From NCBI GenBank assembly GCA_050249955.1, contig JBFWPN010000004.1, positions 224,850 through 288,849 on the forward strand: 64,000 nt of DNA, written 5' to 3'. The translations under genes and the position numbers were made by a program. The DNA is from Vicinamibacterales bacterium. GTDB taxonomy: Bacteria > Acidobacteriota > Vicinamibacteria > Vicinamibacterales > CAVVIG01. Each line of letters begins with the position of its first letter. The first letter of the stretch is position 1. The notes beneath the pieces were generated by a model. The model searched no databases, was not told the origin of the DNA, and was given only the letters and a program-made list of their open reading frames with translations. Positions 7,968 to 58,246 of the stretch are shown here, piece by piece.

Positions 7968-8005
7968 GGCGGCGTCGATTGTAGCCGCCAACCCGCGCGG
8001 CGGGA

Positions 8006-8563: not shown

Positions 8564-8869
8564 GATGCCTCCACTGAACCGGGCGCTCGGCAGCAGGAGC
8601 GCTGCCATGGCCCGCCGGCGTTTCGACGCGCCGTGATGGCCGCACGTTGCAGGGCTTCGTGTCCGTGCCGGCACCGCCGCCTTCATCGTCGCCACGCGCC
8701 GGCTCGAGCGCGCCCTCATCAGGTGACCCGCTCGCAGGCAGCGGCCTGCCGCTTGCAGACCGAGCGCCGATTGCCACCGCAACAGTGGCTGGCGTCGTGT
8801 ATTGGTACGCGACGACGGCCTCCCTGTCGCGAAACACTGTCCAGCCGAGCGCCTCACCACAAGGACCAC

Positions 8870-9760
8870 ATGAGCTACGCGCGACTTGCCGCCGCCCTCC
8901 GGACCGACCATGACCGTATCGTCGACGACTGGCTTCATGCACTGGAGTCGAACCGCGTGGTGCGCAGCGAGCTGATCTCCAGGACCGAGATGCAGCAGCA
9001 GGCACGCGACTTCCTGTCCGGCCTCATCCGTGCGCTCGAGGGCGGAGCGTCCGACATCAGCGCGCGGGACTGGGAGCCGGTGCGCGACCTGCTCGTGCGG
9101 ATCTCACGTTCGCGCGCGCAGCAGGGGTTCAGGCCGAGCGAAACGGCCACCTTCGTGTTCTCGCTCAAGGAACCGATCTTCAAGGTCGTACGTGAACGGG
9201 CCACGTCGGTCCCGGAAGTGGCCGAGGACACCTGGACCGTCACCACGTTGCTCGACGAACTCGGGCTCTTCACGATGGAGGCGTTCCAGAAGACGCGCGA
9301 GGAGGTCATCGCCCGGCAGCAGCAGGAGGTGCTCGAGCTGTCCACGCCGGTCGTCACGCTCTGGCGGGGCATCCTCGCGCTGCCGCTCATCGGCACGCTC
9401 GACAGCGCGCGCACGCAGATCGTCATGGAGAACCTGCTGCAGCGCATCGTCGACACCGGCTCGATGATCGCCATCCTCGACATCACCGGTGTGCCGACCG
9501 TCGACACGCTGGTGGCGCAGCACCTGCTCAAGACGGTGGCGGCTGCGAGGCTCATGGGAGCGGACTGCATCATCAGCGGCATCCGGCCGCAGATTGCGCA
9601 GACCATCGTCCACCTCGGCGTGGACCTGAACTCGGTCACGACGAAAGCCACGCTGGCCGACGCCTTCGCCGTGGCGCTGAGGCGTTCGAGCCTGGCCGTG
9701 GTGGGGGCGCCTGTCGCGGCGTCCACTGTCGCCGCCCCGATCCCGGCCGTGGAGGGCTGA
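8870..9760 (+). CDS. rsbR: stressosome sensor protein RsbR (non-heme-globin-like N-domain + STAS)
   Basis: ORF 8078..9760 trimmed to ATG 8870. C-terminal STAS domain with 'PLIGTLDSARTQ' and 'LDITGVPTVDT' phospho-acceptor contexts. Directly followed by rsbS and rsbT. Confidence 0.85.
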   Translation: MSYARLAAALRTDHDRIVDDWLHALESNRVVRSELISRTEMQQQARDFLSGLIRALEGGASDISARDWEPVRDLLVRISRSRAQQGFRPSETATFVFSLKEPIFKVVRERATSVPEVAEDTWTVTTLLDELGLFTMEAFQKTREEVIARQQQEVLELSTPVVTLWRGILALPLIGTLDSARTQIVMENLLQRIVDTGSMIAILDITGVPTVDTLVAQHLLKTVAAARLMGADCIISGIRPQIAQTIVHLGVDLNSVTTKATLADAFAVALRRSSLAVVGAPVAASTVAAPIPAVEG

Positions 9761-11527: not shown

Positions 11528-13647
11528 CGAGCCGGCTGCTCACCGTGCGCATTGCGCGCGAGGACGATGTGGTGGCGGCGCGCCAGCGGGCACGGCAGGT
11601 GGCGGGTGCCCTGGGCTTCGACGGCACCGACCAGACCCGCGTGGCCACTGCGGTGTCGGAGCTGGCCCGCAACGCGTTCCAGTATGCGCACGGCGGCACC
11701 GTCGCCTTCGAGCTCGAGGGCGACAGGCCTCCGCAGGTGCTGACCATCAGCGTCAGCGACAGGGGCCCGGGGATTGCGAACCTCTCCGACGTGCTGTCGG
11801 GGCGGTACCGGTCGTCGACCGGCATGGGGCTCGGGCTGGTCGGCACGCGCCGGCTGATGGATGGCTTCGCGATCGAGTCGTCCGAGGGTGGGACCACCGT
11901 GACCGTGCGGAAGCTGCTCCCGAGGCGGGCGCACTTCGTGCCGCCGTCCGAGGTGGGCGCGCTCGTCCAGCAGCTGGCCCTCGAGCGCCCTCGCGGCATG
12001 CTGGACGAGGTGCAGTTCCAGAACCAGGAACTGCTGCGCGCGCTGGACGAACTGCGGCGCCGACAGGAGGAGCTCGAGCGGGTGAACGGCGAGCTCCAGG
12101 ACACGAACAGGGGCGTCGTCGCGCTCTATGCCGAGCTGGACGAGCGGGCCGACCACCTGCGCCGGGCTGACGAACTCAAGACCAGGTTCCTGTCGAACAT
12201 GACGCACGAGTTCCGGACCCCGGTGAACTCCATCCTCGCGCTCACGAGCCTGCTTGCCGACCGGCTGGAATCGGGTCCCGACCAGAAGGACGAGGTCTAC
12301 TACATTCGGCGATCGGCCCAGCAGCTCTCCGACCTGGTCAACGACCTGCTCGACATCGCGAAGGTGGAGGCGGGAAAGATCGACGTCCGATCGTCTGCGT
12401 TCGAGGTCGACTCGCTGTTCGGCGCCCTGCGTGGCATGCTGCGGCCCCTGCTGGTGAACCAGTCGCTCAGCCTGGTCTTCGAGGACGCCGCCGGGCTTCC
12501 GCCCCTGCTGTCGGACGAGAGCAAGGTGTCGCAGATCCTGCGCAACTTCATCTCGAATGCGCTCAAGTACACCGAGCGCGGCGAGGTGCGGGTGAGCGCG
12601 GTGCTCACCGACGCGCGCGACCAGATCGTCTTCTCGGTGGCCGACACCGGCATCGGCATCCCGGAGGCCGACATCGCCCGCGTGTTCGACGAGTTCGTGC
12701 AGATCGAGAATCCGCTGCAACGACGGTCGAAGGGCACGGGCCTGGGCCTGCCGCTGTCCAAGCGCCTCGCCGAACTGCTCGGCGGCAGCATCAGCGTGAT
12801 CAGCACGCTTGGCGTCGGCTCGACCTTCTCGCTGACCCTGCCGCTCCTGTTCCGCGATCCCGTGACGGCCGCGCCCATCCGCATCGAGCCCGGGCGCGTG
12901 CCGGTGCTCGTCGTGGAGGACTCCGACGAGGACATGCTGCTCTACGAGCGGGCGCTCATGGGGTCACGGTTCCAGGTCGTACCCACGCGCTCGGTGTCCA
13001 CCGCGCTGGCGGCGCTCGACGCGGTGACACCTGCGGTCATCGTCCTGGACATCAGGCTGCAGTCCGAGGATTCGTGGAGCCTGCTGGCCCGCCTCAAGAG
13101 GGACGACGGGACACGCGGCATTCCGCTGGTGCTGGTCTCGGGCCTGGACGATCGGCAGAAGGGGTTCGCGCTTGGAGCCGATGCCTACCTGGTCAAGCCG
13201 GTCGATCGCCACCACCTGCTGGAACTGCTGGAGACGCTCACCAGCCATTCGTCGACCCTCCGGATCCTCTCGGTGGATGACGAGGAGACGTTCCGCTTCA
13301 TCATCCGCGAGATGATTGGGACCGAGTTCGACGTCGAGTTCGCGGAGTCCGGCGGGCAGGCGCTCCAGCGCGTCCAGGAACGCCGGCCCGACATCGTCTT
13401 GATGGACCTGGAGCTGGGCGACATGGACGGCGTCGAGCTTCATGCGCACCTGCGGTCCGACCCGGTGACGGCCGATCTGCCCATCGTGGTCGTGTCGTCG
13501 CAGCCGGTATCCGACGCCGATCGCCTCCGGTTCGGGCCCTCCCTGGTGCTGCCCAAGTCGCAGCTCTCGCGTGAGCGCCTTGTCACCACCATCCGCGGCG
13601 CCCTGCCGCGCGGTGTCGCCGGGCGTCGTCCGGCGGGAGGACCCTGA
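11524..13647 (+). CDS. hybrid sensor histidine kinase: RsbT-like GHKL domain + coiled coil + HisKA/HATPase_c + two receiver domains
   Basis: ORF 10951..13647 trimmed to ATG 11524 (ATGA overlap with the previous stop). H-box 'SNMTHEFRTP'. 'GTGLGL' G-box. Two receivers: 'VLVVEDSDED...VLDIRL' and 'ILSVDDEE...VLMDLELGDMDG'. Confidence 0.9.
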   Translation: MTSRLLTVRIAREDDVVAARQRARQVAGALGFDGTDQTRVATAVSELARNAFQYAHGGTVAFELEGDRPPQVLTISVSDRGPGIANLSDVLSGRYRSSTGMGLGLVGTRRLMDGFAIESSEGGTTVTVRKLLPRRAHFVPPSEVGALVQQLALERPRGMLDEVQFQNQELLRALDELRRRQEELERVNGELQDTNRGVVALYAELDERADHLRRADELKTRFLSNMTHEFRTPVNSILALTSLLADRLESGPDQKDEVYYIRRSAQQLSDLVNDLLDIAKVEAGKIDVRSSAFEVDSLFGALRGMLRPLLVNQSLSLVFEDAAGLPPLLSDESKVSQILRNFISNALKYTERGEVRVSAVLTDARDQIVFSVADTGIGIPEADIARVFDEFVQIENPLQRRSKGTGLGLPLSKRLAELLGGSISVISTLGVGSTFSLTLPLLFRDPVTAAPIRIEPGRVPVLVVEDSDEDMLLYERALMGSRFQVVPTRSVSTALAALDAVTPAVIVLDIRLQSEDSWSLLARLKRDDGTRGIPLVLVSGLDDRQKGFALGADAYLVKPVDRHHLLELLETLTSHSSTLRILSVDDEETFRFIIREMIGTEFDVEFAESGGQALQRVQERRPDIVLMDLELGDMDGVELHAHLRSDPVTADLPIVVVSSQPVSDADRLRFGPSLVLPKSQLSRERLVTTIRGALPRGVAGRRPAGGP

Positions 13648-15116
13648 TGCCTCGCGCGGTTGTCCTGGTGGTGGACGATGACGAGTCGGGCCGCTTCGCG
13701 AGGGCCCAGGTGCTGCGCCGCGCCGGCTTCGAGGTGGTCGAGGCTGGTTCGGGAGCGGAGGCGTTCGAACGCCTGAGCACCGTCGTGCCTGACGCCATCG
13801 TGCTCGACGTGAACCTGCCCGACATCAACGGCATGGAGATCAGCCGCCGCGTGCGGTCCGGCGAGGGCGACACCAGCATGGTACCGATCCTCCAGGTGTC
13901 GTCGACCGCCGTGTCCGCTGCCGAGCAGGTGAAGGGGCTGGAGCTGGGCGCGGACGTGTACGTGACCGAGCCGATCCATCCCGACGTGTTCGTCGCCGCC
14001 GTCCGTGCCCTGGTGCGCGTGCGCAGGGCGGAGCGCGAGCTCGGCCTCGCGCTCCAGCGCGAGCGGGCGGCCCGGCTCGAGGCGGAAGAGGCGAACGCCA
14101 CGAAGAACGACTTCATCGCCACTCTCTCGCACGAGCTACGCACGCCGCTGAACGCGCTGCTCGGCTCGGTATGGCAGCTCCGGCATGCTGCCGGTGACGA
14201 GGCGGCGCGCCAGCGGGCGCTCGACCGGATCGAGCGCAGTGCCGCGGCGCAGGCGCGGCTGATCAACGACCTGCTGGATCTCTCCCGCATCGCGCGCGGC
14301 AAGCTGACGCTCGCGCTCCGGCTGGTCGACGTGGCCGACATCCTCGAGGACAGCGTGGACGCCGTCAGGCCGGCCGCGGCCCAGAAGCGCGTGACCCTCC
14401 AGACCACGTGGGATCACGTCCGGGTGGTGGCCGATCCCGACCGCCTGCAGCAGATCTTCGTGAACCTGCTGACCAACGCGGTGCAGTTCACGCCGCCGGG
14501 CGGCGTCATCCGCGTGTCGGCCGGAATCGATCGACGGGACGTCGTCATCCGCGTGGACGACTCGGGTGCGGGGATTGCGGCCGACTTCCTGCCGCTGGTG
14601 TTCGAGCAGTTCCGCCAGGGCGAGGCCGGCATGAGCCGCAAGCACGGCGGCCTGGGGCTGGGGCTTGCCGTCGTGAAGCAACTCGTCGACCTGCACGACG
14701 GGCAGGTATCGGTGACGAGCGCCGGGCGGGATCGAGGGTCGTCCTTCACGGTGCGGATCCCCTGCGAATCGGTGGCGACGACGGCAGCCGAAGCCGAGGG
14801 CCGCCCGCTCGAGCGCGTGCGCGTGGTCCTGGCGCCAGATGCCGACATGCCTGCGGACCTGCCGGCGGTGCTGGCAGCCGCCGGCGCCACGGTAGAGTCG
14901 GTGCGGGACCTGCCAGGCGTGGAGGCCCACGTGCGGGGCTCGGACTGCGACGCGGTGGTGATCTCACCGACGTATGCCGCGCGCCTGCCGGCGTCGCTCA
15001 GCGATGCCCGTGGCCGGGTGCCCCTCGCCATCACCGCGTGGGTGACCGAGCAGCCGATTGCCGTGGTGCGGAGGCTCAGCCGCGGTGTCCGGAACGGGAA
15101 TGGCAGTGCCGGCTGA
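13647..15116 (+). CDS. receiver-histidine kinase hybrid (REC + HisKA + HATPase_c + uncharacterised C-terminal ~110 aa)
   Basis: 'VLVVDDDE...VLDVNLPDINGME' receiver. H-box 'LSHELRTPLN'. 'HGGLGLGLAV' G-box. The start overlaps the previous stop (TGATG). Confidence 0.9.
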   Translation: MPRAVVLVVDDDESGRFARAQVLRRAGFEVVEAGSGAEAFERLSTVVPDAIVLDVNLPDINGMEISRRVRSGEGDTSMVPILQVSSTAVSAAEQVKGLELGADVYVTEPIHPDVFVAAVRALVRVRRAERELGLALQRERAARLEAEEANATKNDFIATLSHELRTPLNALLGSVWQLRHAAGDEAARQRALDRIERSAAAQARLINDLLDLSRIARGKLTLALRLVDVADILEDSVDAVRPAAAQKRVTLQTTWDHVRVVADPDRLQQIFVNLLTNAVQFTPPGGVIRVSAGIDRRDVVIRVDDSGAGIAADFLPLVFEQFRQGEAGMSRKHGGLGLGLAVVKQLVDLHDGQVSVTSAGRDRGSSFTVRIPCESVATTAAEAEGRPLERVRVVLAPDADMPADLPAVLAAAGATVESVRDLPGVEAHVRGSDCDAVVISPTYAARLPASLSDARGRVPLAITAWVTEQPIAVVRRLSRGVRNGNGSAG

Positions 15117-15133
15117 CGCGGCGCACGCGGGGG

Positions 15134-15700
15134 CTACTCCGTGGCTGCTGGTGCGTCCGCCCGCCGCATCGGCGCCAGCGCGCGCGCGAACGACCGCACC
15201 CGACCCTCGCACGGGGGCAGTGGGTCGCACGCCAGCACGTAGAGCACGACGGTGGTGAGCAGCGCGAGCGCCTCGGTCGTCAGCATGAACCGCATGCCGG
15301 ACGCCAGGTAGGCCATCCAGAGCGGACCCGAGAGGAGCACCGAGATCGTCAGGAACGCAATCCGGAGCTGTGCGTCCCTCACACGGCGCGGGTTCCGGAG
15401 GCCGCGAGCCACCCGCCCATACGCCTGTGCCTCGGCTGCCTCGAGCGACATCCGGAAGAGCGTGCGCGTGAGCATGACGAAGACCGCGCCACCGAAGCCG
15501 GCCACGAACACCCGCAGTGCGAACATGCCGCTCAGCCAGTAGAGCACCGACACCCAGCCGAAGTAGATGACGATGCTGAGGTTGGTGAGCTGGAAGGCGA
15601 GCCAGACATTGCTGCGCCCGGTCCACCGCTGAAACCAGCGGCAGAGCCGTTCCACCAGGTCGAGAACCGCAGAGTCGACATAGGCCATGGAGGATGACAC
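15134..15700 (-). CDS. hypothetical polytopic membrane protein
   Basis: 188-aa ORF with about 4 hydrophobic helices. GTG start at 15700 or ATG at 15688. No family recognised. Confidence 0.55.
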   Translation of the reverse strand: MSSSMAYVDSAVLDLVERLCRWFQRWTGRSNVWLAFQLTNLSIVIYFGWVSVLYWLSGMFALRVFVAGFGGAVFVMLTRTLFRMSLEAAEAQAYGRVARGLRNPRRVRDAQLRIAFLTISVLLSGPLWMAYLASGMRFMLTTEALALLTTVVLYVLACDPLPPCEGRVRSFARALAPMRRADAPAATE

Positions 15701-15857
15701 CCTCGCGCGTGTGACTGCTTAGACACCACAGGCCGGCGTCCGGTTCGGCCGGCCGTGTGCCCAGTGGTCCCGGCCTTCCGGGCGTTCCCGGCGTCCTGCC
15801 ATATCCGCGCCGGGTTCTGGCAGCCGGGCGGGCGCGGGGATTGCGTGGCACAGCTCC

Positions 15858-17141
15858 GTGCGCCTGCGCCCGAGCCGTCTCCTCACCGGTCTCCTCATCG
15901 TCGTCGCAGCCATCGCCCTGGCGCTGGCGGTGGCGCAGGACCAGGAGACGCTGCAGCTTCGGAGTGGTGTGGCGGCCGCCGATGCCGGCTCGCCGGCCTA
16001 CCTGGCGGCCCTGACAGGCGCGCCGGTTTCGACGGGCAACCGGTTCACCATCCTGAACAACGGCGACGAGATGTTCCCGGCGATGCTCGGGGCGATCGAC
16101 CGGGCCAGGGCGCGGGTGCGCTTCGAGACGTTCGTCTTCGAGGATGGCGAACTGGCCACACGCTTCGTCGAGGCCTTCGAACGGGCCGCCCATCGCGGTG
16201 TGACGGTCGACATCGTGGTGGACTTCATCGGGGCGAGCGACATGGCCGAGCAGCACCTGGAGCGGCTGCGTGCTGCCGGATGCCGGGTCATCAGCTACAA
16301 CGAGGCGGAGTGGTACCACCTCGAGGAAGTGAACTACCGCACGCACCGGAAGATCCTGGTGGTCGACGGACAGGTGGCGTTCACCGGAGGGGCCGGGCTG
16401 GCGGACCATTGGCTGGGGCACGCGCAGGATCCGGAGCACTGGCGTGACATCCAGGTGGGCATCCAGGGGCCGGTTGCGCGGCTGCTCGAAGCGGCCTTCT
16501 ACGAGAACTTCGTCGAGCTCGGAGCGCCGGTGACACCGCGGATCGGCCCGGCGCCCTCCGTCTGGGCGGGCGGGGCGATGGAGGTAGCGACCGGATCGAG
16601 CCTCGTGGTGCGGAGCTCCGCAAGCGGTGGCAGCAGCGACATGAAGCGGCTCTACCTGCTGCTGATTGCCTCGGCGCGCCGGACCCTGGACATAGCGAGC
16701 CCGTATTTCGTGAGCGACGAGTCGTCCGAGTGGGCGCTGGACGATGCGGTGAAGCGGGGCGTGCGGGTGCGGGTACTCACCGAGGGGGACCACACGGATG
16801 CCCGGCCGGTGAAGTATGCCTCGCGCCGGAACTACGACCGGCTGATCGCGCGAGGCATCCAGATCGCGGAGTACCAGCCGACCATGTTCCACGCGAAGGT
16901 GATGGTGGTGGACGGCGTCTGGAGCATGTTCGGGTCGGCCAACTTCGACAATCGGTCGCTCGAACTGAACGACGAACTGAACGTGGCGGTGCACGACGCC
17001 GACCTCGCCTCGCGATTCGGACGCATCTTCGAAGACGACCTGCGTCGTGCGAAGGCGCTCACGCTGCCGGAGTGGCGGCGCCGTCCGCTCGGCGAGAAGG
17101 CGCGGGAGTTCTTCTGGGGGTACTGGGGCGAAATCTTCTGA
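15858..17141 (+). CDS. cls: cardiolipin synthase / phospholipase D family
   Basis: Two HKD motifs (HRKILVVDGQVAFTGGAG and HAKVMVVDGVWSMFGSANFDNRS) and an N-terminal TM helix. Confidence 0.9.
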   Translation: MRLRPSRLLTGLLIVVAAIALALAVAQDQETLQLRSGVAAADAGSPAYLAALTGAPVSTGNRFTILNNGDEMFPAMLGAIDRARARVRFETFVFEDGELATRFVEAFERAAHRGVTVDIVVDFIGASDMAEQHLERLRAAGCRVISYNEAEWYHLEEVNYRTHRKILVVDGQVAFTGGAGLADHWLGHAQDPEHWRDIQVGIQGPVARLLEAAFYENFVELGAPVTPRIGPAPSVWAGGAMEVATGSSLVVRSSASGGSSDMKRLYLLLIASARRTLDIASPYFVSDESSEWALDDAVKRGVRVRVLTEGDHTDARPVKYASRRNYDRLIARGIQIAEYQPTMFHAKVMVVDGVWSMFGSANFDNRSLELNDELNVAVHDADLASRFGRIFEDDLRRAKALTLPEWRRRPLGEKAREFFWGYWGEIF

Positions 17142-17154
17142 GCGCCCCTGTCGT

Positions 17155-17802
17155 TCACGGCTTCGGGATCCGCAGCGTGGCGCTGATCATGGCACTGCCA
17201 CTGAGCCCGTAGAGCAGGCTGAGGGGATGGAATCCGGCGAACCCGAGCCGGTAATGCCCGAACCAGAGGTGTTCGTCGGTGGCGCCCGTGAAGAACGCCA
17301 CCGCCAGGAGGGCGACGATGGCGATGCTGGTGGGGATGGGGGTGCCTTCGAAGTACTGCACCTTGCCGGTGGCCGCGTCGGCGAGTGCGCTCGCGGTGAC
17401 GTTGAAGCGGGCCAGGCGGCTGACGCCGCACACCACGAAGTAGGCCAGCACGACCATGTCCCAGCCGCCGCGAAGCCCCAGTGTGAAGCCGAGCACGGCT
17501 GGGGCGACGCCGAAGGAGATGACGTCGGCCAATGAGTCGAGGTCGCCGCCGAGCACCGACTGCCGCCGGCGGTCCAGCCGGGCCACGTAGCCGTCGAGGA
17601 TGTCGCACAGCAGGGCAAGCGGCAGCAGCACGAACGCGATCGCCAGGATCGACGGGCGGCGGTCTTCGGCCAGGTAGTTCAGGCAGAGGAAGATGGCGAT
17701 GGTGCCGCAGGTTGCATTGCCGATGGTGAGGAGGTCGGCAGCCGTGTACGACCGGAGCATGGAGAGGTGACGGGGACGCTCCGGTGCCTGCGGTCCGCTC
17801 AT
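17155..17802 (-). CDS. pssA: CDP-diacylglycerol--serine O-phosphatidyltransferase (CDP-alcohol phosphatidyltransferase family)
   Basis: ORF 17155..18045 trimmed to ATG 17802 (alternative 17760). Signature DGxxARx8Gx3Dx3D present as 'DILDGYVARLDRRRQSVLGGDLDSLAD'. Confidence 0.85.
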   Translation of the reverse strand: MSGPQAPERPRHLSMLRSYTAADLLTIGNATCGTIAIFLCLNYLAEDRRPSILAIAFVLLPLALLCDILDGYVARLDRRRQSVLGGDLDSLADVISFGVAPAVLGFTLGLRGGWDMVVLAYFVVCGVSRLARFNVTASALADAATGKVQYFEGTPIPTSIAIVALLAVAFFTGATDEHLWFGHYRLGFAGFHPLSLLYGLSGSAMISATLRIPKP

Positions 17803-17886
17803 GGCCTCATCCGGTTCAGCAACATGAGGGCCATTGTGGCACTGCCGGGCAGGTGGAGCTGGTCGGGCAGGTGGGGCTGCCCGGGA

Positions 17887-17924
17887 ACAAAAAAGCACGG
17901 AGGCCCCATTGGAACCTCCGTGCT
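17887..17924 (-). terminator. intrinsic terminator downstream of 17960..19366
   Basis: On the minus strand: AGCACGGAGG-(11 nt loop)-CCTCCGTGCT followed by TTTTTTG. Confidence 0.7.
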
Positions 17925-17959
17925 CGGGTCGTGCATCGCGGCGCCCGGGGGGCGCGCGG

Positions 17960-19366
17960 TTACTGCTGCTGGGTGCCGGTCGTCGGCTTGACGCCGTTGG
18001 TGACGCCCTCGCCGTACTTGGCGACGCGCTCGGCGTATTCCGCATCGTCCAGGTAGACCACGTTCATCCAGGCGTGGGCCATCTCGTCGACCGTGCGGTC
18101 ACCGTAGCCGACCCACTGGTCCGGGTCGGGGTTCGACTTGTTCGCCTTCGTGTTGTCGTAGTACGCCGTGACGTGGATGATGGTGCCCTTCGGGAAGACC
18201 GGCGACGCCTCGTCCGTGTAGATGTAGTTGGTCATCCAGTTGAAGTTGAAGTCCTTCACGTAGCTGACCACCTGGGTCCGGCCGTCGGGGAAGATCGCCT
18301 CGACCTGCATCGCCTTGCCGCGCAGGTGGAAGTGCGGCTGGAAGTTCGTGATGATCGTGTTCTGGCGCAGGACGGTGAAGCCCTCGGTGTGCGCCACCGA
18401 GTTCGGCGGAATGTCGAGGCCGGCCGTGCCGTTCTTGAGGCCCGTGAACGGGATCAGGTAGCTGCGCTTCTTCGGCTCCTGGCCTTTCGGGTAGAGCCAC
18501 AGGCCGATCTCCGACCCACCGGTGATGGCCTCACCAGCCGCGTGAATGTGCTGGTCCCAGGAAATCTTCTCTCCCGGCATGATGACCTTGCCGGTGCCTT
18601 CGAGGTAGCGGTCGTAGCCCTTGCCGATCGCCCACTCCATCAGCGAGGGACGACGGGCCACGAGGTCGGCTGCCGCCTGCGAGGCGGAGCCGGACACCGA
18701 GATCTGGCGACCCTGGCTCGGGTTGACGGCAGCGGCGTTCTCGGGGCTGAGGATGTGGTACGCGATCGAGTGGTGCAGGATCTTGCGCGACTGGATGTTG
18801 GTCGGACGAATCTCGACCATCTTCACCCAGCGGGGTTCCGTCACCGGAATCTCGCTGATCGGGCGCCACCACTGGTCCTGCGAGACGGCAGGCATCGTGT
18901 ACTCCGGCGCCTTGACGACGATGTCCGGCGGGCCGTAGCCATCGCGCTCGCCCATCCAGAACAGGTCCTTCGCCACCGGCTTGGCCTTGAAGTCCGACGG
19001 GTTGCCCTCGAGGGCGCCGCCGTCGACCCAGGCCACGACCGTCGCGACCTGCTCGTCGGTCAGCGACATGTCGTTCTTGAACTTCTGCACGCCGACCGAG
19101 CGGTCGATGTGCCACGGCGGCATCTGCCGCGATTCGACACGCTGCTTGATCGAGCGGGCCCACGGACGCGCGTCCTGGTAGGTGACCAGCGACATCGGGC
19201 CGATCGAGCCGGGCTCGTGGCACGACTGGCACTTGGCCTGGAGGATGGGTGCCACGTCCTTGCTGAACGTGACCTGCTTCTGCTGCGCGGCTGCCGTGCC
19301 AGGGAGGGCGATGACCGCTCCGAGAACGAGCGCGCCAGCTCCGAGGTGAATCGTCGAACGTGCCAT
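17960..19366 (-). CDS. exported cytochrome c domain fused to PHM/DBH-like (copper type II monooxygenase-like) two-domain scaffold, paralog 1
   Basis: Signal peptide. CQSCH heme-c motif at residues 46-50, in a planctomycete-type cytochrome c context (FSKDVAPILQAKCQSCH). Then HH (198-199), HxH (273/275), HFH (345/347) and Met (429/434), with spacings similar to the PHM CuH/CuM ligands. Confidence 0.85.
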   Translation of the reverse strand: MARSTIHLGAGALVLGAVIALPGTAAAQQKQVTFSKDVAPILQAKCQSCHEPGSIGPMSLVTYQDARPWARSIKQRVESRQMPPWHIDRSVGVQKFKNDMSLTDEQVATVVAWVDGGALEGNPSDFKAKPVAKDLFWMGERDGYGPPDIVVKAPEYTMPAVSQDQWWRPISEIPVTEPRWVKMVEIRPTNIQSRKILHHSIAYHILSPENAAAVNPSQGRQISVSGSASQAAADLVARRPSLMEWAIGKGYDRYLEGTGKVIMPGEKISWDQHIHAAGEAITGGSEIGLWLYPKGQEPKKRSYLIPFTGLKNGTAGLDIPPNSVAHTEGFTVLRQNTIITNFQPHFHLRGKAMQVEAIFPDGRTQVVSYVKDFNFNWMTNYIYTDEASPVFPKGTIIHVTAYYDNTKANKSNPDPDQWVGYGDRTVDEMAHAWMNVVYLDDAEYAERVAKYGEGVTNGVKPTTGTQQQ

Positions 19367-19435
19367 TGAAGGCTCCTTGAAAGAGACTGAAGAACTGACC
19401 CGGACAGCATAGCGGCCGGCCGGCCACCTGGTCGT

Positions 19436-19451
19436 TATCCAAATGTGGATA
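19436..19451. promoter_or_regulatory. AT-rich palindrome TATCCAAATGTGGATA (TATC-N8-GATA), candidate operator
   Basis: Lies 70-85 nt upstream of the start codon of paralog 1. Shares 12/16 positions with the site at 21145..21160, upstream of paralog 2. Confidence 0.4.
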
Positions 19452-19490
19452 GCGACGGGCCGGGTGGGACGAGCCAGGTTGGACTGGCCG

Positions 19491-19535
19491 GAAAAGACAA
19501 AAGCACGGAGGTCCCGGGTGGGAACCTCCGTGCTT
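19491..19535 (-). terminator. intrinsic terminator downstream of 19571..20989
   Basis: On the minus strand: AAGCACGGAGGT-(11 nt)-ACCTCCGTGCTT followed by TTGTCTTTTC. Homologous to the terminator at 17887..17924. Confidence 0.6.
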
Positions 19536-19570
19536 CCGGTCGTGCCTCGCGGCGCCCTGGGGCGCCGTGA

Positions 19571-20989
19571 TTACTGCTGCTGCTGCGTGCGGGCTTCCGG
19601 CTTCACGCCGTTGGTGACGCCCTCACCGAACTTGGCGACGCGCTCGGCGTATTCCGCGTCGGTCAGGTAGACCACGTTCATCCAGGCGTGCGCCATCTCG
19701 TCGACGGTGCGGTCGCCGTAACCCACCCACTGCTCGGGGTCGGGGTTCGACTTGTTCGCCTTGGTGTTGTCGTACCACGCGCTCACCTTGATGATGGTCC
19801 CCTTCGGGAACACCGGGGCGGCCTCGTCGGTGTAGATGTAGTTCGTCATCCAGTTGAAGTTGAAGTCCTTCACGTAGCTGATGGTCTGCGAACGGCCATC
19901 GGGGAACAGCGCCTCGACCTGCATGGCCTTGCCGCGCAGGTGGAAGTGCGGCTGGAAGTTCGTGATGACGGTGTTCTCCTTCAGCACGTTGAAGCCTTCC
20001 GTGTACGCCACCGCGTTCGGCGGAATGTCCAGGCCCTCGGCGCCGTTCTTCAGGCCCGTGAAGCCCACGAGGTAGCTGCGCTTCTTCGGCTCCTGGCCTT
20101 TCGGGTAGAGCCAGAGGCCCAGTTCCGAACCGCCCTTGATCTCTTCACCCACGGCATGGATGTGCTGGTCCCAGGAGATCTTCTCTCCCGGCATGATCAT
20201 CTTGCCGGTGCCTTCCATGTAGCGGTCGTAGCCCTTGCCAATCGCCCACTCCATGATCTGCGGGCGACGGAGCGCGAGCTCCTGCTGGCTCGGGGCGGCC
20301 GAACCGGAGACGGCGGCGCCACGCGCCACCTGGACGCCGGTGTTCACGGCCGAGACGTTGTTCTCGTTCAGGATGTGGTACGCGATCGAGTGGTGCAGGA
20401 TCTTGCGCGACGCGATGTTGGTCGGACGGATTTCGACCATCTTGATCCAGCGCGGTTCCGTGATCGGAATCTCGCTGATCGGGCGCCACCACTGGTCCTG
20501 CGAGACCGCAGGCATCGTGTACTCAGGAGCGCTGATCACGATGTCCGGCGGGCCGTAGCCATCGCGCTCGCCCATCCAGAACAGTTCCTTGGCAACCGGC
20601 TTGGCCTTGAAGTCGGCCGGGTTGCCCTCGAGGGCGCCACCGTCGACCCAGGCCGAGATCGTGGCCACCTGCTCGTCGGTCAGCGACATGTCGTTCTTGA
20701 ACTTGGTCACGCCGACCGACCGGTCGATGTGCCACGGCGGCATCTGCCGCGATTCGACACGCTGCTTGATCGAACGCGCCCACGGGCGCGCATCCTGGTA
20801 GGTGACCAGTGACATCGGGCCGATCGAGCCGGGCTCGTGGCACGACTGGCACTTGGCCTGCAGGATGGGAGCCACGTCCTTGCTGAACGTGACCTGCTTC
20901 TGCTGCGCGGACGCAACGCCCGGAGCAGCCAGCAGGGCGCCGAGCACGAGCGCGCCTGCCCCGACATGGAACTTCGTCTCTGCCATCAT
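19571..20989 (-). CDS. exported cytochrome c domain fused to PHM/DBH-like scaffold, paralog 2
   Basis: 472 aa, colinear with 17960..19366 with long identical runs. The same CQSCH, HH, HxH, HFH and Met positions are kept. Confidence 0.85.
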   Translation of the reverse strand: MMAETKFHVGAGALVLGALLAAPGVASAQQKQVTFSKDVAPILQAKCQSCHEPGSIGPMSLVTYQDARPWARSIKQRVESRQMPPWHIDRSVGVTKFKNDMSLTDEQVATISAWVDGGALEGNPADFKAKPVAKELFWMGERDGYGPPDIVISAPEYTMPAVSQDQWWRPISEIPITEPRWIKMVEIRPTNIASRKILHHSIAYHILNENNVSAVNTGVQVARGAAVSGSAAPSQQELALRRPQIMEWAIGKGYDRYMEGTGKMIMPGEKISWDQHIHAVGEEIKGGSELGLWLYPKGQEPKKRSYLVGFTGLKNGAEGLDIPPNAVAYTEGFNVLKENTVITNFQPHFHLRGKAMQVEALFPDGRSQTISYVKDFNFNWMTNYIYTDEAAPVFPKGTIIKVSAWYDNTKANKSNPDPEQWVGYGDRTVDEMAHAWMNVVYLTDAEYAERVAKFGEGVTNGVKPEARTQQQQ

Positions 20990-21144
20990 TTCCTCCTAGC
21001 GACACCGGCACGGAGGCAATCCGCATCCGATGCAGCGACACCACGGGACGCTGCGCCGAACTCTGCCGGTACGAACGCGCGAATGTTATCGGAGCCGGCG
21101 GCCGGTTTCACTAAGGGAATCGTTAAAACGGGCACTTTCAGGCC

Positions 21145-21160
21145 TATCTAAATACAGATA
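21145..21160. promoter_or_regulatory. AT-rich palindrome TATCTAAATACAGATA (TATC-N8-GATA), candidate operator
   Basis: Lies about 155-170 nt upstream of the start codon of paralog 2, in a locally AT-rich intergenic region. Confidence 0.4.
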
Positions 21161-21182
21161 GGGGGACTCTCGCGGCGCGGGA

Positions 21183-21389
21183 TCACCGCCGTCGCCGGCG
21201 GCGCCTGGCCTTCAGGTTGGCGTAGAGCTGCGGGTCGCTGTGCCGCACGAGGTCGTGCCGGCTCGGGCTGGCTGGACACCGCCACGCCACCGGTTGCCCG
21301 CTCAGGAAGGCGGCCATTTCCCGCTCCCATGCGAGGAGGATCCGCGAGGCCAGCTGCTCATCGGGCTCTTCGAAGGCCACGCCGACCAC
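21183..21389 (-). CDS. possible small protein with poly-Arg tail
   Basis: C-terminal part of ORF 21183..21971, starting from an in-frame GTG at 21389. Almost every third position is G/C. Sits directly downstream of the GT87-like gene. No family recognised. Confidence 0.3.
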   Translation of the reverse strand: MVGVAFEEPDEQLASRILLAWEREMAAFLSGQPVAWRCPASPSRHDLVRHSDPQLYANLKARRRRRRR

Positions 21390-21417
21390 GCTGCAAGCCG
21401 CGGTCCTTGTCGGCGGT

Positions 21418-22659
21418 TCAGGCGCCGGGGGCAGCACTCGGCCTGAAGGCCCGCCACCACAGGCAGGCCACGACCAGTGCGCCCAGGTTGCCGGTGACCA
21501 GCGTCGCCAGCCACGGCAGACCCCACAGGTTCGGCCACAACGGCAGGACGGCCAGTGCCAGCACGGCCAGGTACGGGCCCGGGCCCGCCAGCCAGTGCTC
21601 GTGGCGACCCAGCGCCAGCGCCGCGGGCAGCGCCCACCAGATGTAATACATCCAGGCCAGGGGCGACACCAGCCACGCCGCGCACCAGAGCCCCAGCCAG
21701 GCCCGGTCCGGAGTGGCCCGCCGCAACTGCCACACGCTCCAGGCGCCGACCCCCACACAGGCCAGCCAGCCTGCCAGCCGCACACCGGCAGATGGCAGGG
21801 GCAGTGGCTGGAACACGTGCGACGGTCCGGTGACCCGCGTGACCAGCCCCCAGATCGACACGTTGCCGAACATCGACAGTTCGTCGACCGCACCCACCGC
21901 CCGCACCCAGTCGACGTACGTGCCCGGACCGAACACGACGGCGCCTGCCGCCCCGAGCCCGGCAGACACACCGGCCATCGCGGCCACGGCGCGCCAGTGC
22001 CCCCGCCACACCGGGTAGATCAGCAGCAGCCAGGGATACGGCTTGCTGCTGGCCACCACGCCGAGCCACGCACACGCCGCCACCAGCCGGTCCCGCCGCC
22101 ACGCCCGCCACCCGAGTGTTGCCGGCAGCATCAGCAGCCAGACGTACTGCCCGTACACCAGCGTCGACACCGTCGCGAGTGTCGACAGCAGCACGGCGTT
22201 CACGAACCAGACGACGGTCACGTCCCGCCACCGGATGCCGAGCTCCCTGGAGATGACGGCCAGGGAGGCGATGAACGCGCCAGCGTTGGCCGTAATCCAG
22301 ACACCGTACGCGACCCGGTCGGGCAGCGACACGAGCGGCCAGACGAGCAGGTGCAGGTGGGGGGGCGCGAGGTCGAGCAGGTCCCTGTCGAATGGATACC
22401 CCCACTGGCTCGCGACGGTCAGGTCGTAGAACGAACCTCCCGTCTGCTGCGACCGCAGGCCGTAGAGGAACAGCCCGAAATCGGTCTGCGTAACGCCCGC
22501 GTTCCGGGCCAGTGCCGTGGCATACGCGGCGACCAGCGGCAGGCAGACGACGACCCCAAAGGTCAGCACGAGGCCGTCGAACGCTGAACTGCGCTGCGCT
22601 GAATGGTTGAGCTGTGGCGGCGTGATACTCAACAATAGCCCACCACGTGCCGCCCCCAT
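21418..22659 (-). CDS. polytopic membrane glycosyltransferase, DUF2029/GT87-like
   Basis: The 887-aa ORF was trimmed to ATG 22659. About 10 TM helices rich in W/L/A. The family call is from general resemblance only. Confidence 0.6.
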   Translation of the reverse strand: MGAARGGLLLSITPPQLNHSAQRSSAFDGLVLTFGVVVCLPLVAAYATALARNAGVTQTDFGLFLYGLRSQQTGGSFYDLTVASQWGYPFDRDLLDLAPPHLHLLVWPLVSLPDRVAYGVWITANAGAFIASLAVISRELGIRWRDVTVVWFVNAVLLSTLATVSTLVYGQYVWLLMLPATLGWRAWRRDRLVAACAWLGVVASSKPYPWLLLIYPVWRGHWRAVAAMAGVSAGLGAAGAVVFGPGTYVDWVRAVGAVDELSMFGNVSIWGLVTRVTGPSHVFQPLPLPSAGVRLAGWLACVGVGAWSVWQLRRATPDRAWLGLWCAAWLVSPLAWMYYIWWALPAALALGRHEHWLAGPGPYLAVLALAVLPLWPNLWGLPWLATLVTGNLGALVVACLWWRAFRPSAAPGA

Positions 22660-22758
22660 GCGGCAGGGAGCAGCCGACCGGCCTGCCCCCGCGGGTGGCG
22701 CGGCCAATCGCTTCCGCCGACAACAGGGTGTGATGGTCCCGGTATTCAAGGAGCGGCG

Positions 22759-24111
22759 ATGACGAGAATGGCTCGGCGGGTGAAGGCGGCGGCGATGGTG
22801 GTGCTCACGTCCGCACTGTTGCTCGTATCCGGTGTGACACCGCGTGCAGAAGGGGCACCCCCGCGGCTGCGCGTGGACGCCACCGGCCGCGGATTCGAGA
22901 CGGTCACTGGCCAGCGATTCGTCTACATGGCCGACACCGCCTGGGGGCTCCTCACCGAACTCTCCAGCACGGAAGCCACCACCTACCTGAAGAACCGGTC
23001 TGCCAAGGGCATGACGGTGATTCAGATGGTGGCGGGCTGGGATCTCTGCGCCGGGTTCCGCAACTGCGATCCCGCCCGGCCGATTGCCACCTACTGGAAG
23101 AAGCTCGACGGGATCGTCACCCAGGCCGAAGGGGTGGGGCTCTACGTGGCGCTGCTCCCGATCTGGGGAACCGCGGTCGAGAACGGACGGGTGGATGCGG
23201 TGCGCATGGAGGCCTACGGCCGGTTCCTTGGCGCCCGCTATCGCCAGCACCCGCTCATCTGGATCATCGGAGGCGACACGATTCCCGCCGGCTTCGAGGC
23301 GACCTGGCGCGCCCTCGCTCGCGGCATTGCCATCGGCCAGAACGGCACGGAGACCTACGCGAACACGCTGATGACGTTCCATCCGCGCCCGTACTTCGAC
23401 GGCTCGCGCTGGTACGGCAGCTCCGCGTACTGGTTCGCCAACGAACCCTGGCTGTCGTTCACGATGCTCCAGACCGGCCACTGCCTCGCGTGTGTCACCT
23501 ACCCCTGGGTGGAGGAGGAGTACGCGCGGATGCCGGTCCGGCCGGTCATCACGGGCGAGCCGGCCTACGAACACATCCCCGACCAGCTCACCGCTGGCAA
23601 CCCGCTCATCACGGCCGACGATGTGGAGCGGTTCGCGTATGAGGCGACGTTCGCCGGTGCTCCCGGCCACGCGTACGGCGCCAACGAGGTGTACGGCTTC
23701 TGGAACCCGGGCGACCCGGCGCAGTACGGGTACGACGTGTGGGGCGCCAGCGTCCCCTGGCCTCAGGCGCTGGACTTCCCGGGCGCCTCGCGCATGGGCC
23801 TGCTGCGCGGGCTGCTGGCCGCCTATCCCGGTCGCGTCCCGGCTCCGTCCGTGCTGCTCTCGCCGAACCCGTGGGGCCAACTTCACGTCGGCGTGACCCG
23901 TGCGGCGAACGGCGACTTCGTGCTGGCCTACGTGCCCGATGGCAGCGCGATCACCATCGACACCGGTGCCCTGCGCTCGCCCACTGCGTCCTGCGCGTGG
24001 TGGAGCCCGCGCGACGGCGCCTCGGTTAACTGCGGCACGACCACCACCGGGGCCCGGGTGTTCACGCCGCCGACGCTGCATAGCTGGGTGCTGGTCCTGA
24101 AGGCGCAGTAG
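22759..24111 (+). CDS. secreted glycoside hydrolase, DUF4038/GH140-like
   Basis: Signal peptide. 'FVYMADTAWGL', 'IWIIGGD' and 'GEPAYEHI' blocks are typical of DUF4038, followed by a C-terminal beta-sandwich. Confidence 0.7.
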   Translation: MTRMARRVKAAAMVVLTSALLLVSGVTPRAEGAPPRLRVDATGRGFETVTGQRFVYMADTAWGLLTELSSTEATTYLKNRSAKGMTVIQMVAGWDLCAGFRNCDPARPIATYWKKLDGIVTQAEGVGLYVALLPIWGTAVENGRVDAVRMEAYGRFLGARYRQHPLIWIIGGDTIPAGFEATWRALARGIAIGQNGTETYANTLMTFHPRPYFDGSRWYGSSAYWFANEPWLSFTMLQTGHCLACVTYPWVEEEYARMPVRPVITGEPAYEHIPDQLTAGNPLITADDVERFAYEATFAGAPGHAYGANEVYGFWNPGDPAQYGYDVWGASVPWPQALDFPGASRMGLLRGLLAAYPGRVPAPSVLLSPNPWGQLHVGVTRAANGDFVLAYVPDGSAITIDTGALRSPTASCAWWSPRDGASVNCGTTTTGARVFTPPTLHSWVLVLKAQ

Positions 24112-24129
24112 GCGAGGCCCCCCGCGGGC

Positions 24130-26316
24130 TCAGAGCCGGAACAGGTACGACACCTTGGTGAAGAACCCCCGCTGGCTCTGCTGGAAGGCCCCGGCCCCCA
24201 CGCTCCAGCGGCCGTCCTCGAACGCGCGTCGCTCGATGAGCGACCCGTAGCCGACGTAGAAGACCGACCCCGGCCGCAGTTCGAAGGACAGCAGCGTGTC
24301 GGTGAGCACGCGGTGGCGCGAGCTGTCGTACTGCACCAGCCCGCGCAGGAACAGCTGCCGCGTGAACTGCCAGGTCGTCTTCGAGTTGACGATGTCGACG
24401 GTGTAGAGGCGGGCGCTGGTGTCGCGCCGGTCGAAGCTGACGCGGTCCACCGAGAGCGACTGAGAGAACTGGCCGTTCGGCTGCAGCACGAACCCGCCGT
24501 TCAGCCGCTGCCGCTTGCCGGCAAGCGGAGCTGCCGGGTCGTAGAAGACCGCGCGTCCCCCCTCGTAGCGACCGTCGAGCTTCAGCCACCGGAAGATCTG
24601 GACGTTGCCCCACACGCGCACGTTGCCCCGCTCGAAGCGCTGGCCGGCCCAGTGCTCGAATCCCCACGATCGGTCCACGCGCAGGAAGCCCAGGCGCGTG
24701 AAGTTGAACCGGACGCCGGTCACCTCGAGCTGCTCGCGTCCGCCCGCGTTCCGGTCGGTGCCACCCTGCGCGAAGACGAACGGTGAGATGCGCCGCACCC
24801 AGGCGAACGGGCCGCTGCCCGGGTAGAAATTGTGATCGAGGTAGGCCCATCCGCTCGTGAGACCCACGCGGTTCAGGAAGGCGCTGTCCATCTGGAACCC
24901 CCGGCTGTAGTGCTCGACGGCCCCCTGCGCCGCCATGGCGCGCGTGCTGTAGTTGTAGCTGAGGGTGCTGCCCACGCCCTCCTGCGCGGAGGTCCCCCGC
25001 GCCTGCGTCCTCGATCCGAGCACGAACCCCTCGATGCGCTGCGTAGGGGTCAGCCGCTTCGAGAAGTCGGCACCGGCCACGCGGTTCGACCGCCCGGAGA
25101 ACTCCGTGTCGGTGGCGATGGCGCCCACATACTCGCTCGGGCCCACGCTCACCTGCATGCGGCCGATGTTCACCAGGCGGTCCCTGCCGAGTGCCGGGTC
25201 GCCCGCGGCCAGCCCGCGCCCGGGTGCCTGATCCGACGCGGTGAGCGTGGCGAATGTCAGGCGTCCGCGGCTGCCCGTGAGTTTCACGCCGGCAATGGGG
25301 TCGACCACGCGCCGCGTGTGGACGGCGCGCTGCATGCTGTTGTCGCCGCCCGAGGCCGCGAGCGAGAAGATGCCCGCACCCTCCATGAAGAACGGGCGCT
25401 TCTCGGAATAGAAGACGGGGAAGCGCTGGTTCACGTCCACCTGGAAGGCGTCGCTCTCCACCTGGCTGAAGTCGGGGTTCAGGGTGGCGTCCACCGAGAT
25501 CTGCGAGCTCAGTCCGAGCTTCACGCTCAGGCCGGAGTCGGCCACCTGGTCCATCGGCGACCAGCTGGTGGGCGTGCGCCGATCCTGGCGCTCGGAGAGG
25601 CTGACGCTCGGGATGATGTCGCGCGGCAGGCGCGGGTCGAGGTGGGGCATGCGCAGTGACGCGTGCTTCTCGAACACCCACTTGCTCGGCTCGAGGGGCG
25701 GCCACGCCACCGACACACCGGTGCGGCTGACCTTGCGCCAGAACAGCACGCCCATCCGCACATCGTCGCCGCTGGCGAACCGGATGCTGCGGAGGGGGAG
25801 CTTCACCTCGACCGAGTAGCCGGTGGACGTGAGGCGGCCGGCGCTTTCCCACACCCAGTCGACGGAGGCGTCCTCGTTGCTGCCCACGGTGTTCAGCATG
25901 TCGAGCTGGATGCCGTTGGGGTTCACCATCATGTGGTAGGCGAGCTGGCCCGTGCCGGTGGCGTCGAGGCTCAGTCCCACCCAGTCGTCGGCGCCGAAGT
26001 TGTCGCGCCGCGCCACCGAGGTCTTGATGCGGGCCGGTTCAGGGTCGTCGCACTTGAAGGCGAAGTAGAGCGCGTCCGCGTCGTAGGCCACCCACACCGT
26101 GGTGGTTTGCGGGATCGCGTCGCCGTAGAGCGGCTGGTACGAGCGCCACCCGGTGGCGGCGACGGGCGGGTCGGCCCAGGCTCGATCGTCGAGGACACCG
26201 TCGATGCGTGGTGGGGTGGAGGGGTGGCCGGGAGTGATGGTGAACGCGGCAGTGTCCGCGGCTGAGGCGGCGTGCGCGAGGAGCGACGCGGCCACCAGGC
26301 ACGCCAGGATTCGCAT
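24130..26316 (-). CDS. CBM9/DUF5916-type outer-membrane protein
   Basis: Signal peptide MRILACLVAASLLAHAASA. 'PRIDGVLDDRAW' CBM9-like N-terminus. Ends in ...YLFRL. Paralog of 3952..6234. Confidence 0.8.
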   Translation of the reverse strand: MRILACLVAASLLAHAASAADTAAFTITPGHPSTPPRIDGVLDDRAWADPPVAATGWRSYQPLYGDAIPQTTTVWVAYDADALYFAFKCDDPEPARIKTSVARRDNFGADDWVGLSLDATGTGQLAYHMMVNPNGIQLDMLNTVGSNEDASVDWVWESAGRLTSTGYSVEVKLPLRSIRFASGDDVRMGVLFWRKVSRTGVSVAWPPLEPSKWVFEKHASLRMPHLDPRLPRDIIPSVSLSERQDRRTPTSWSPMDQVADSGLSVKLGLSSQISVDATLNPDFSQVESDAFQVDVNQRFPVFYSEKRPFFMEGAGIFSLAASGGDNSMQRAVHTRRVVDPIAGVKLTGSRGRLTFATLTASDQAPGRGLAAGDPALGRDRLVNIGRMQVSVGPSEYVGAIATDTEFSGRSNRVAGADFSKRLTPTQRIEGFVLGSRTQARGTSAQEGVGSTLSYNYSTRAMAAQGAVEHYSRGFQMDSAFLNRVGLTSGWAYLDHNFYPGSGPFAWVRRISPFVFAQGGTDRNAGGREQLEVTGVRFNFTRLGFLRVDRSWGFEHWAGQRFERGNVRVWGNVQIFRWLKLDGRYEGGRAVFYDPAAPLAGKRQRLNGGFVLQPNGQFSQSLSVDRVSFDRRDTSARLYTVDIVNSKTTWQFTRQLFLRGLVQYDSSRHRVLTDTLLSFELRPGSVFYVGYGSLIERRAFEDGRWSVGAGAFQQSQRGFFTKVSYLFRL

Positions 26317-54859: not shown

Positions 54860-54925
54860 TCGCCGGTTCGGGGCGACGGGCTGGGATGGTTCCAGGTGAC
54901 GTGGAGACCCCGGGAGGATCGTGGA

Positions 54926-58215: not shown

Positions 58216-58246
58216 GCTGCCTCGAGATGTCGCCTCAGAGGCCAGC
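58216..58246 (+). promoter_or_regulatory. leader hairpin upstream of TonB-dependent receptor 2
   Basis: GCTGCCTC-(14 nt)-GAGGC-c-CAGC. Counterpart of 54823..54859. Confidence 0.3.

Follow-up and report, generated by a model that had tools for sequence, protein, structure and literature searches.

The 64-kb stretch of DNA analysed here (the window; ~68% G+C), the nearest relatives of which are Vicinamibacterales (Acidobacteriota) metagenome-assembled genomes, carries a tandem pair of paralogous genes on its minus strand, at 17960..19366 (paralog 1) and 19571..20989 (paralog 2). Our results indicate that both probably encode periplasmic, heme c-tethered non-coupled binuclear copper monooxygenases of the peptidylglycine α-hydroxylating monooxygenase (PHM)/dopamine β-hydroxylase (DBH) type. 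The textbook members of this class, i.e. PHM, DBH and TBH, are regarded as eukaryotic and have been studied with ascorbate as a diffusible, artificial-looking reductant; in animals, a copper core of this kind serves in the synthesis of noradrenaline and of amidated peptide hormones. The assignment is based on the predicted fold of the copper core, on the conservation of its putative ligands, and on a heme c motif that accompanies the core throughout the family.

An earlier sequence-only reading of this DNA had proposed a duplicated, exported cytochrome c fused to a PHM-like scaffold, and the two open reading frames that it described are present, coding for 468 (paralog 1) and 472 (paralog 2, as listed) residues. 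As it had also stated, both proteins have a signal peptide (of Sec-like appearance by inspection, MARSTIHLGAGALVLGAVIALPGTAAA followed by QQ), both contain the heme c motif CQSCH within FSKDVAPILQAKCQSCH (19217-19231 and 20837-20851), and the paralog 1 residues that it listed, i.e. HH198-199, H273/H275, H345-x-H347 and M429/M434, are all there. The putative signal peptide of paralog 1 spans residues 1-27, ending in AAA before QQ (19286..19366, minus strand), as read from the translation; the predicted local distance difference test (pLDDT) score is <50 for residues 1-28. The paralogs have the same architecture, i.e. signal peptide, heme c domain and PHM/DBH-like two-domain copper core, and are 84% identical in protein and 85% in DNA sequence; the ratio of nonsynonymous to synonymous substitution rates (dN/dS) between them is 0.26, implying that purifying selection maintains both. 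No third copy is present within the 64-kb window. An AGGAG box lies 8 nt 5' of the paralog 1 ATG. Paralog 2 opens with ATGATG, preceded by an AGGAGG box at a distance of 2 nt (first ATG) or 5 nt (second ATG). Both this Shine-Dalgarno spacing and the alignment, in which M1 of paralog 1 pairs with the second ATG, make 20986 the probable true start of paralog 2, giving a protein of 471 residues.

Structure prediction places the copper core in the PHM/DBH fold class, i.e. a two-domain β-sandwich. In a Foldseek search of the PDB with an AlphaFold2 model of the window protein (pLDDT 67, predicted template modelling score 0.67), the 29 best matches are all PHM or DBH structures (expectation values (E) 7e-10 to 3e-7, probability 1.00), in line with the likeness to PHM that had been proposed from the sequence. 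The alignments extend over ~315-360 columns and thus span both domains; the target-normalised template modelling (TM) scores are 0.45-0.58, with 0.34 for the longer DBH chain. Other members of this fold class, namely double jelly-roll capsid proteins of viruses and PNGase F-II, come next, with E 6e-6 or worse. Based on the secondary structure of the model, which gives approximate boundaries, the PHM N-domain-like β-sandwich comprises about residues 145-300 (18467..18934, minus strand), with H198/H199 (18770-18775) and H273 (18548-18550) of the proposed CuH site, and the C-domain-like β-sandwich about residues 301-440 (18047..18466, minus strand), with H345-x-H347 (18326-18334) and M429 (18080-18082) of the proposed CuM site. 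The corresponding paralog 2 motifs, likewise on the minus strand, are LHHS (20387-20398), DQHIH (20156-20170), PHFHL (19937-19951) and VDEM (19694-19705).

Profile comparisons lead to the same superfamily. A family profile searched against PDB sequences matches human DBH (4zel, E 1.6e-4), with vHHavv aligned to VHHMEV, dlHlH to EVHYH and PHmHlrGk to LHTHLTGR, such that H198 and H199 fall on DBH VHHMEV, H273 on the first His of EVHYH, and H345-F-H347 on LHTHLTGR. With respect to Pfam, the expected family membership is borne out by relatives and not by the window proteins themselves, in which Cu2_monoox_C is faintly detected over residues 319-411 (11.3 versus 23 bits, E 0.25) and the N-terminal model, Cu2_monooxygen, finds no match. 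By contrast, relatives P0391 (27.7 bits) and P0425 (27.5 bits) exceed the Cu2_monoox_C gathering score, and P0194 has the domain order cytochrome c, Cu2_monooxygen, Cu2_monoox_C; among 35 diverse full-length members, Cu2_monoox_C is found in eight and the N-terminal Cu2_monooxygen in one.

The CuH site of PHM is formed by H107/H108/H172 and its CuM site by H242/H244/M314. When counted over 150 representatives of clusters at 50% identity, using only sequences that cover each site, the residues proposed to be equivalent to these are strongly conserved: H198 in 55/65, H199 in 57/65, H273 in 93/95, H345 in 108/110, H347 in 112/116 and M429 in 87/88. In an alignment of 35 sequences (26-46% identity), H273, H345 and H347 are the sole invariant columns, and H198, H199 and M429 are conserved in ≥90%. 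The conserved set is thus, at the level of sequence, the HH...H plus HxH...M pattern of CuH and CuM, and the prediction that the His/Met ligands are kept among homologs held down to ~26% identity for H198/H199/H273 and H345/H347/M429. It failed for the two alternatives offered with them, H275 (68/98) and M434 (17/84); H431 is conserved in 47/87. M429 is located in a T-x-DEM motif, 82 residues beyond H347, with the known CuM Met being ~70 residues after its HxH, and model confidence is low in this region. A fortuitous arrangement of His and Met residues is ruled out by the fold search, the DBH profile match and the ligand conservation. Conservation is also not limited to the ligands, with a mean column identity of 78% across 47 sequences and many invariant residues on the surface and in the cleft.

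The heme c domain of paralog 1 covers approximately residues 30-120 (19007..19279, minus strand), as defined by conservation and by Pfam matches that are just below threshold (Cytochrome_CBB3, 24.3 versus 27 bits; Cytochrom_C, 20.7 versus 21.3 bits); relatives exceed the cytochrome c gathering score, e.g. P0173 (37.1 bits) and P0172 (34.1 bits). C46, C49 and H50 of CQSCH (residues 46-50) are each conserved in 30/30 of the cluster representatives that cover the site, and M82 of the RQMPPW motif (19112-19129; 20732-20749 in paralog 2, both minus strand), a candidate axial ligand, in 33/35. Apart from the two of CxxCH, no Cys residue is conserved. A CxxCH motif is present upstream of all 271 complete PHM-like domains with at least 100 residues upstream, comprising 120/120 close homologs, 27/27 from the set obtained with a heme-less query, and 124/124 from the distant P0194 subfamily, the halves of doubled proteins included. 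As judged from these sequences, the heme motif is obligatory in the family. At the sequence level the heme domain is matched, weakly in both cases, only by PccH-type cytochromes and by the heme domain at the C terminus of hydrazine synthase α (5c2v), and a single-sequence search of PDB sequences matched only the heme segment, again to hydrazine synthase α 5c2v. The similarity to 5c2v and the PccH type consists of a shared F-x-x-D-[IV]-x-P-I-[LF]-x-x-x-C-x-x-CH motif (E 0.003-0.04), a match that is short, weak and uninformative on function, the rest of hydrazine synthase being unrelated. Hydrazine synthase α was rejected as a functional lead, the NCBIfam match being 13.8 bits against a cut-off of 800 and confined to the heme domain.

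The family is large and mostly acidobacterial. When residues 121-468 alone were used as the query of an exhaustive HMMER search, 5290 representatives of clusters at 50% identity were matched at E ≤ 0.001, and public names of members include "cytochrome c", "mono/diheme cytochrome c family protein", "heme-binding domain-containing protein", "thiol-disulfide isomerase" and "hypothetical protein". Some relatives, e.g. P0173, have AhpC/TSA or thioredoxin-like modules N-terminal to the cytochrome, the addition of which accounts for the name "thiol-disulfide isomerase" given to some members. Doubled members, with two cytochrome c plus PHM-like units in one polypeptide, also occur, including P0173 (1251 residues), P0172 (1064 residues) and P0391-P0399 (~870 residues); some of these carry extra AhpC/TSA, thioredoxin-like or EF-hand modules. 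The closest relative of the window has a three-gene tandem array of family genes and, ~200 kb away, a second cluster with the order family gene (471 residues), partner gene (297 residues; see below), family gene (466 residues), a 470-residue open reading frame and a second partner gene (309 residues). The 471-residue family protein of that cluster is 87% identical to paralog 1. At least five paralogs are verified in one genome, and probably six are present. The window genes are partner-less tandem members of such an expanded paralog set.

In the mechanism that we propose, a mono-heme c domain with His50 as the proximal and Met82 as the distal ligand would take single electrons from periplasmic or respiratory carriers. 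These would pass from the heme to an electron-transfer copper site formed by H198/H199/H273 (the CuH equivalent), and thence to the O2- and substrate-binding copper site formed by H345/H347/M429 (the CuM equivalent), the heme standing in for ascorbate as a source of two single electrons. CuM would activate O2 and hydroxylate a C-H bond in a substrate that is located in the periplasm or belongs to the cell envelope. In part of the family the chemistry may be of the peptidylglycine α-amidating monooxygenase (PAM) type, i.e. α-hydroxylation of a glycine-like N-substituent followed by cleavage by a lyase, and in most genomes the enzyme may work with a secreted immunoglobulin (Ig)-like partner protein. 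The analysis shows the fold class, the conserved ligand set, the obligatory heme motif and the synteny with the partner; that the sites are occupied by metal and heme, that electrons run in this direction, that the protein is a monooxygenase and what kind of substrate it acts on are inferred. The role of the heme as a built-in electron donor is likewise a proposal, one strengthened by the presence of the heme domain in all 271 of the domains considered. The mechanism is in keeping with a fusion that is obligatory, with ligands that are all retained, and with the additional redox modules of relatives.

A possible lyase component comes from two rare relatives, P0405 and P0407, in which the domain order is NHL propeller, cytochrome c, PHM-like core. 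The propeller matches rat peptidyl-α-hydroxyglycine α-amidating lyase (PAL; 3fvz) with E 3.2e-38 over one collinear stretch (67-317 to 67-319 of 329 residues). The Zn-binding and catalytic positions of PAL, H585, Y654, H690, R706 and H786, have H94, Y160, H192, R207 and H292 of P0405 within ~2 residues of them, in an approximate comparison made via a 976-residue PAM chain. The P0405 fusion gene (L082, 359-2593) is followed by a CoA-transferase family III gene. Separate PAL-like NHL genes (330-440 residues) are found ≤6 kb from a family gene in ~10 of 80 loci, in varied positions and orientations. The fusions and neighbours thus hint at PAM-type chemistry in at least part of the family, an indication that is suggestive and not conclusive.

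The most frequent companion of the family genes encodes a secreted protein of ~285 residues. In loci of relatives, retrieved with a five-sequence alignment and drawn mainly from GTDB species-representative genomes, this partner gene is beside a family gene in 76/81 cases, usually 25-270 bp downstream; in L049 the partner gene (7329-8192) begins so close that it overlaps with the family gene at the stop codon of the latter, and L088 has two partner-family genes (3732-4625 and 8282-9211). The partner family has at least 6863 homologs, all named "hypothetical". No match was obtained for the partner in Pfam (PKD, E 0.12), in NCBIfam or by searching the PDB with a profile. An AlphaFold2 model of the partner predicts tandem Ig-like sandwiches, for which the only structural matches are generic Ig-like or carbohydrate-binding module (CBM) sandwiches (TM ~0.25). 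Its N-terminal domain recurs near distant family members, both downstream of the family gene (L084, 8337-9077; hhalign 99.8%) and upstream of it with a 4-nt overlap (L083, 6498-7004; hhalign 98.2%), which argues that the pairing is old and functional. The N-terminal domain has the motif EGW...GY.NRN...P.G..NR..PG..D.GQP..F.PGRQ, and most members have CCW near the C terminus. Like the window, the array of three tandem genes in the closest relative is without a partner gene; it may be that the partner acts in trans on the window proteins. In a distant subfamily, at L083 (4916-8377), L085 (4925-8371) and L086 (2145-5591), an AbgT-type transporter gene, a gene for a partner-like protein of 160-168 residues and a PHM-like gene form an apparent operon. 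The linkage to an AbgT-family (p-aminobenzoyl-glutamate-type) transporter may hint that the substrate resembles an N-acyl-amino acid.

The electron path could also run in the reverse direction, with the copper core being an oxidase or dehydrogenase and heme c relaying its electrons into the respiratory chain, by analogy with quinohemoprotein dehydrogenases. Fused c-type cytochromes of periplasmic enzymes are often electron acceptors, an obligatory heme fits either direction, and the large paralog sets would suit a catabolic role. We consider such a flow unlikely, because the full PHM ligand set is conserved, including the Met of the O2-activating CuM, and because the AhpC/TSA thiol-redox modules located upstream of the heme in relatives suggest electron input; to our knowledge, moreover, all characterised enzymes with a PHM-type CuM site are reductant-consuming monooxygenases. 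The same peroxiredoxin-like fusions, together with the parallel in design to cytochrome c-fused copper nitrite reductases (NirK) and the presence of the nitrite-bound PHM structure 3mib among the fold matches, could be taken to favour a reductase of nitrite, nitric oxide, O2 or peroxide, with heme c feeding the copper site. Such a role seems to us distinctly improbable, in that the PAL-like fusions point to an organic substrate and no denitrification genes are found nearby, either in the window or in the sampled loci. A NirK-like enzyme in particular was rejected, the fold being PHM-like rather than that of a cupredoxin, without a Pfam match to cupredoxin or Cu-oxidase models and without a conserved Cys for type 1 copper.

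That no substrate is known, and that the partner protein is without a recognisable catalytic fold, would be compatible with a non-catalytic copper- and heme-binding protein, i.e. one that retains the PHM scaffold but serves to shuttle electrons or to store or chaperone copper. A mere carrier would have no need of two distinct copper sites, yet both are kept, and the conservation noted above goes far beyond the ligands, with dN/dS also being low; we regard this explanation as very improbable indeed. We give hardly any credence to a copper-free, glycan-binding or hydrolytic double jelly-roll protein like PNGase F, sharing only the clan fold with PHM. It is true that PNGase F-II is among the fold matches (E ~1e-4), that some window genes are carbohydrate-related (GT87, apiosidase-like and CBM9/DUF5916), and that PHM and PNGase F are grouped in one Pfam clan (PMC8812541). 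The E-values of PHM and DBH are, however, better by ~5 orders of magnitude and their TM-scores are twice as high, the family profile matches DBH and not PNGase F, and the PHM copper ligands are conserved; a PNGase F-like protein was rejected on these grounds. None of these alternatives fits the conserved CuM-type site as well as does a heme-tethered monooxygenase.

Several observations nonetheless weigh against our assignment to the PHM/DBH monooxygenases, or against its extension to PAM-type chemistry and to the window proteins. The sequence does not fix the direction of electron flow; the window proteins themselves reach no Pfam gathering score; and the model is weakest at the ligand loops, with block-mean confidence of 68, 65, 63 and 44 around H198/199, H273, H345/347 and M429, respectively. 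The equivalence of M429 to PHM M314 (DBH M487) is proposed from conservation and spacing. With respect to the PAL-like propeller of the fusions, PAL scores slightly below TRIM-type NHL domains, the TRIM-type matches being made up of separate repeat-level pieces, and in searches with parts of the P0405 propeller generic NHL proteins always rank above PAL. The link to neighbouring PAL-like genes is seen in only ~12% of loci, which are phylogenetically non-independent, and NHL proteins are common. Neither paralog has an NHL domain, and the 64-kb window has no PAL-like gene and no partner homolog, the latter even in an unfiltered profile search (best E 0.73), such that inferences from relatives may not transfer to the window.

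The organisation of the locus bears on how the two genes are expressed. Each is followed on the minus strand by an intrinsic terminator-like G+C-rich hairpin and T-run (17893..17925, 3' of paralog 1; 19498..19538, 3' of paralog 2), the two being homologous, and the 3' flanks can be aligned over ~90 nt, hairpin included, whereas the 5' flanks cannot. The proposal that the whole unit was duplicated, including its terminator, thus stands for the coding sequence and terminator, and does not extend to the 5' region. A second short, G+C-rich inverted repeat, GCGCCCC(C/A)GGGCGC, is kept between the copies (within 17926-17960 and 19539-19571), being located right after both stop codons and upstream of the terminator hairpin. 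Upstream of the genes, 16-bp palindromes that are candidate operators occur 85 nt from the paralog 1 ATG (TATCCACATTTGGATA, 19436..19451) and 171 nt from the paralog 2 ATG (TATCTGTATTTAGATA, 21145..21160). The palindrome TATCYRYATTTRGATA has only two matches in the 64 kb, with 0.01 expected. In the nearest relative (L001/L003) it likewise precedes all of the tandem copies that are without a partner, and in L002 it precedes one copy, that closest to paralog 1; the background of the loose palindrome pattern is 0.005 per 320 nt. A scan of 17600-21400 found no sigma-70-like promoter. Since each copy has its own terminator and its own conserved palindrome, the two are probably transcribed separately yet co-regulated, and their description as independent transcription units is reasonable. 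In L001, an OmpR-type two-component system lies immediately upstream of the tandem array.

The genes flanking the pair (13647-17800 and 21418-26316) encode a hybrid response-regulator/histidine kinase, a phospholipase D (PLD)-type (cardiolipin-synthase-like) protein, a CDP-alcohol phosphatidyltransferase, a GT87 membrane glycosyltransferase, an apiosidase-like glycosidase and a CBM9/DUF5916 protein. None of these recurs in neighbour clustering of 80 loci of relatives, save for CBM9/DUF5916 near the L001 array, and they are therefore not counted as part of the system; the CBM9/DUF5916 gene in the window and in L001 may reflect local synteny, with no sign of a functional link. The window contains a second tandem duplication, on the plus strand (54896-57958 and 58137-61322), coding for proteins of ~1020-1060 residues each that are 92% identical and have an N-terminal CarboxypepD_reg domain, a domain typical of acidobacterial TonB-dependent-receptor-like outer-membrane proteins.

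Comparison with characterised enzymes defines what is conserved and what is distinctive in the family. PHM (1PHM/1OPM/1SDW), DBH (4ZEL), TBH and MOXD1/2 have the two-domain β-sandwich fold predicted for the family and the HH...H plus HxH pattern with similar spacing, M429 being the putative counterpart of their CuM Met, although PHM and DBH are only ~10-15% identical to the window protein. The eukaryotic enzymes function in the secretory pathway and use free ascorbate, with DBH having a DOMON domain, whereas the family is bacterial and predicted to be periplasmic, with an obligatory N-terminal c-type heme domain and a dedicated Ig-like partner protein. It also differs in having a ~30-residue low-confidence insert (residues 216-238) that separates the HH motif from the remainder of the N domain. 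Bifunctional PAM, like P0405 and P0407, joins a PHM-like core to a PAL (in the relatives, a PAL-like NHL) propeller; in the fusions, however, the propeller is N-terminal and the heme domain is between the modules, and the window proteins have no propeller. There is precedent for a tethered or dedicated cytochrome giving single electrons to an extracytoplasmic copper centre in NirK fusions and in the cellobiose dehydrogenase-lytic polysaccharide monooxygenase (LPMO) system. Cytochrome c-tethered copper nitrite reductases and the cellobiose dehydrogenase cytochrome that reduces LPMOs are analogues in design only, having unrelated folds and copper sites; the electron-donor systems of LPMOs have been reviewed (PMC5987398).

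Searches of open-access full-text literature yielded no description of prokaryotic PHM/DBH-like proteins, of the cytochrome c fusion, of the partner or of the size of the family, only eukaryotic PHM, DBH, TBH and MOXD being covered; the sequence-only reading, which knew of no characterised member with the heme c-PHM architecture, agrees with this. Work on the evolution of PAM is said to mention PHM-like and PAL-like sequences in a few bacteria. A 2022 paper describes PHM as widespread in eukaryotes (PMC8812541). We rate as new an electron-input module, a partner and a habitat for the known PHM/DBH superfamily, in an arrangement that is widespread and not peculiar to the window.

A broader proposal, which is speculative and on balance rather unlikely, is that the family represents PAM and DBH in bacteria and may even be ancestral to them, that it is a periplasmic α-hydroxylating monooxygenase driven by the respiratory chain, and that with PAL-like propellers (fused in some members) and the Ig-like subunit it carries out PAM-type oxidative N-dealkylation/amidation of peptides, N-acyl-amino acids or envelope components in soil Acidobacteriota. 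If the proposed activity is correct, the family would provide a prokaryotic system, tractable in experiment, for triggering electron transfer between the coppers and from heme to copper and following it optically, and would allow a periplasmic, bacterial origin of the eukaryotic enzymes to be tested. Thousands of family entries could be re-annotated, as could the partner family with its at least 6863 "hypothetical" proteins. The family would also offer a possible new oxidative chemistry in the abundant, poorly cultured Acidobacteriota of soils, genomes of which have five or six paralogs.

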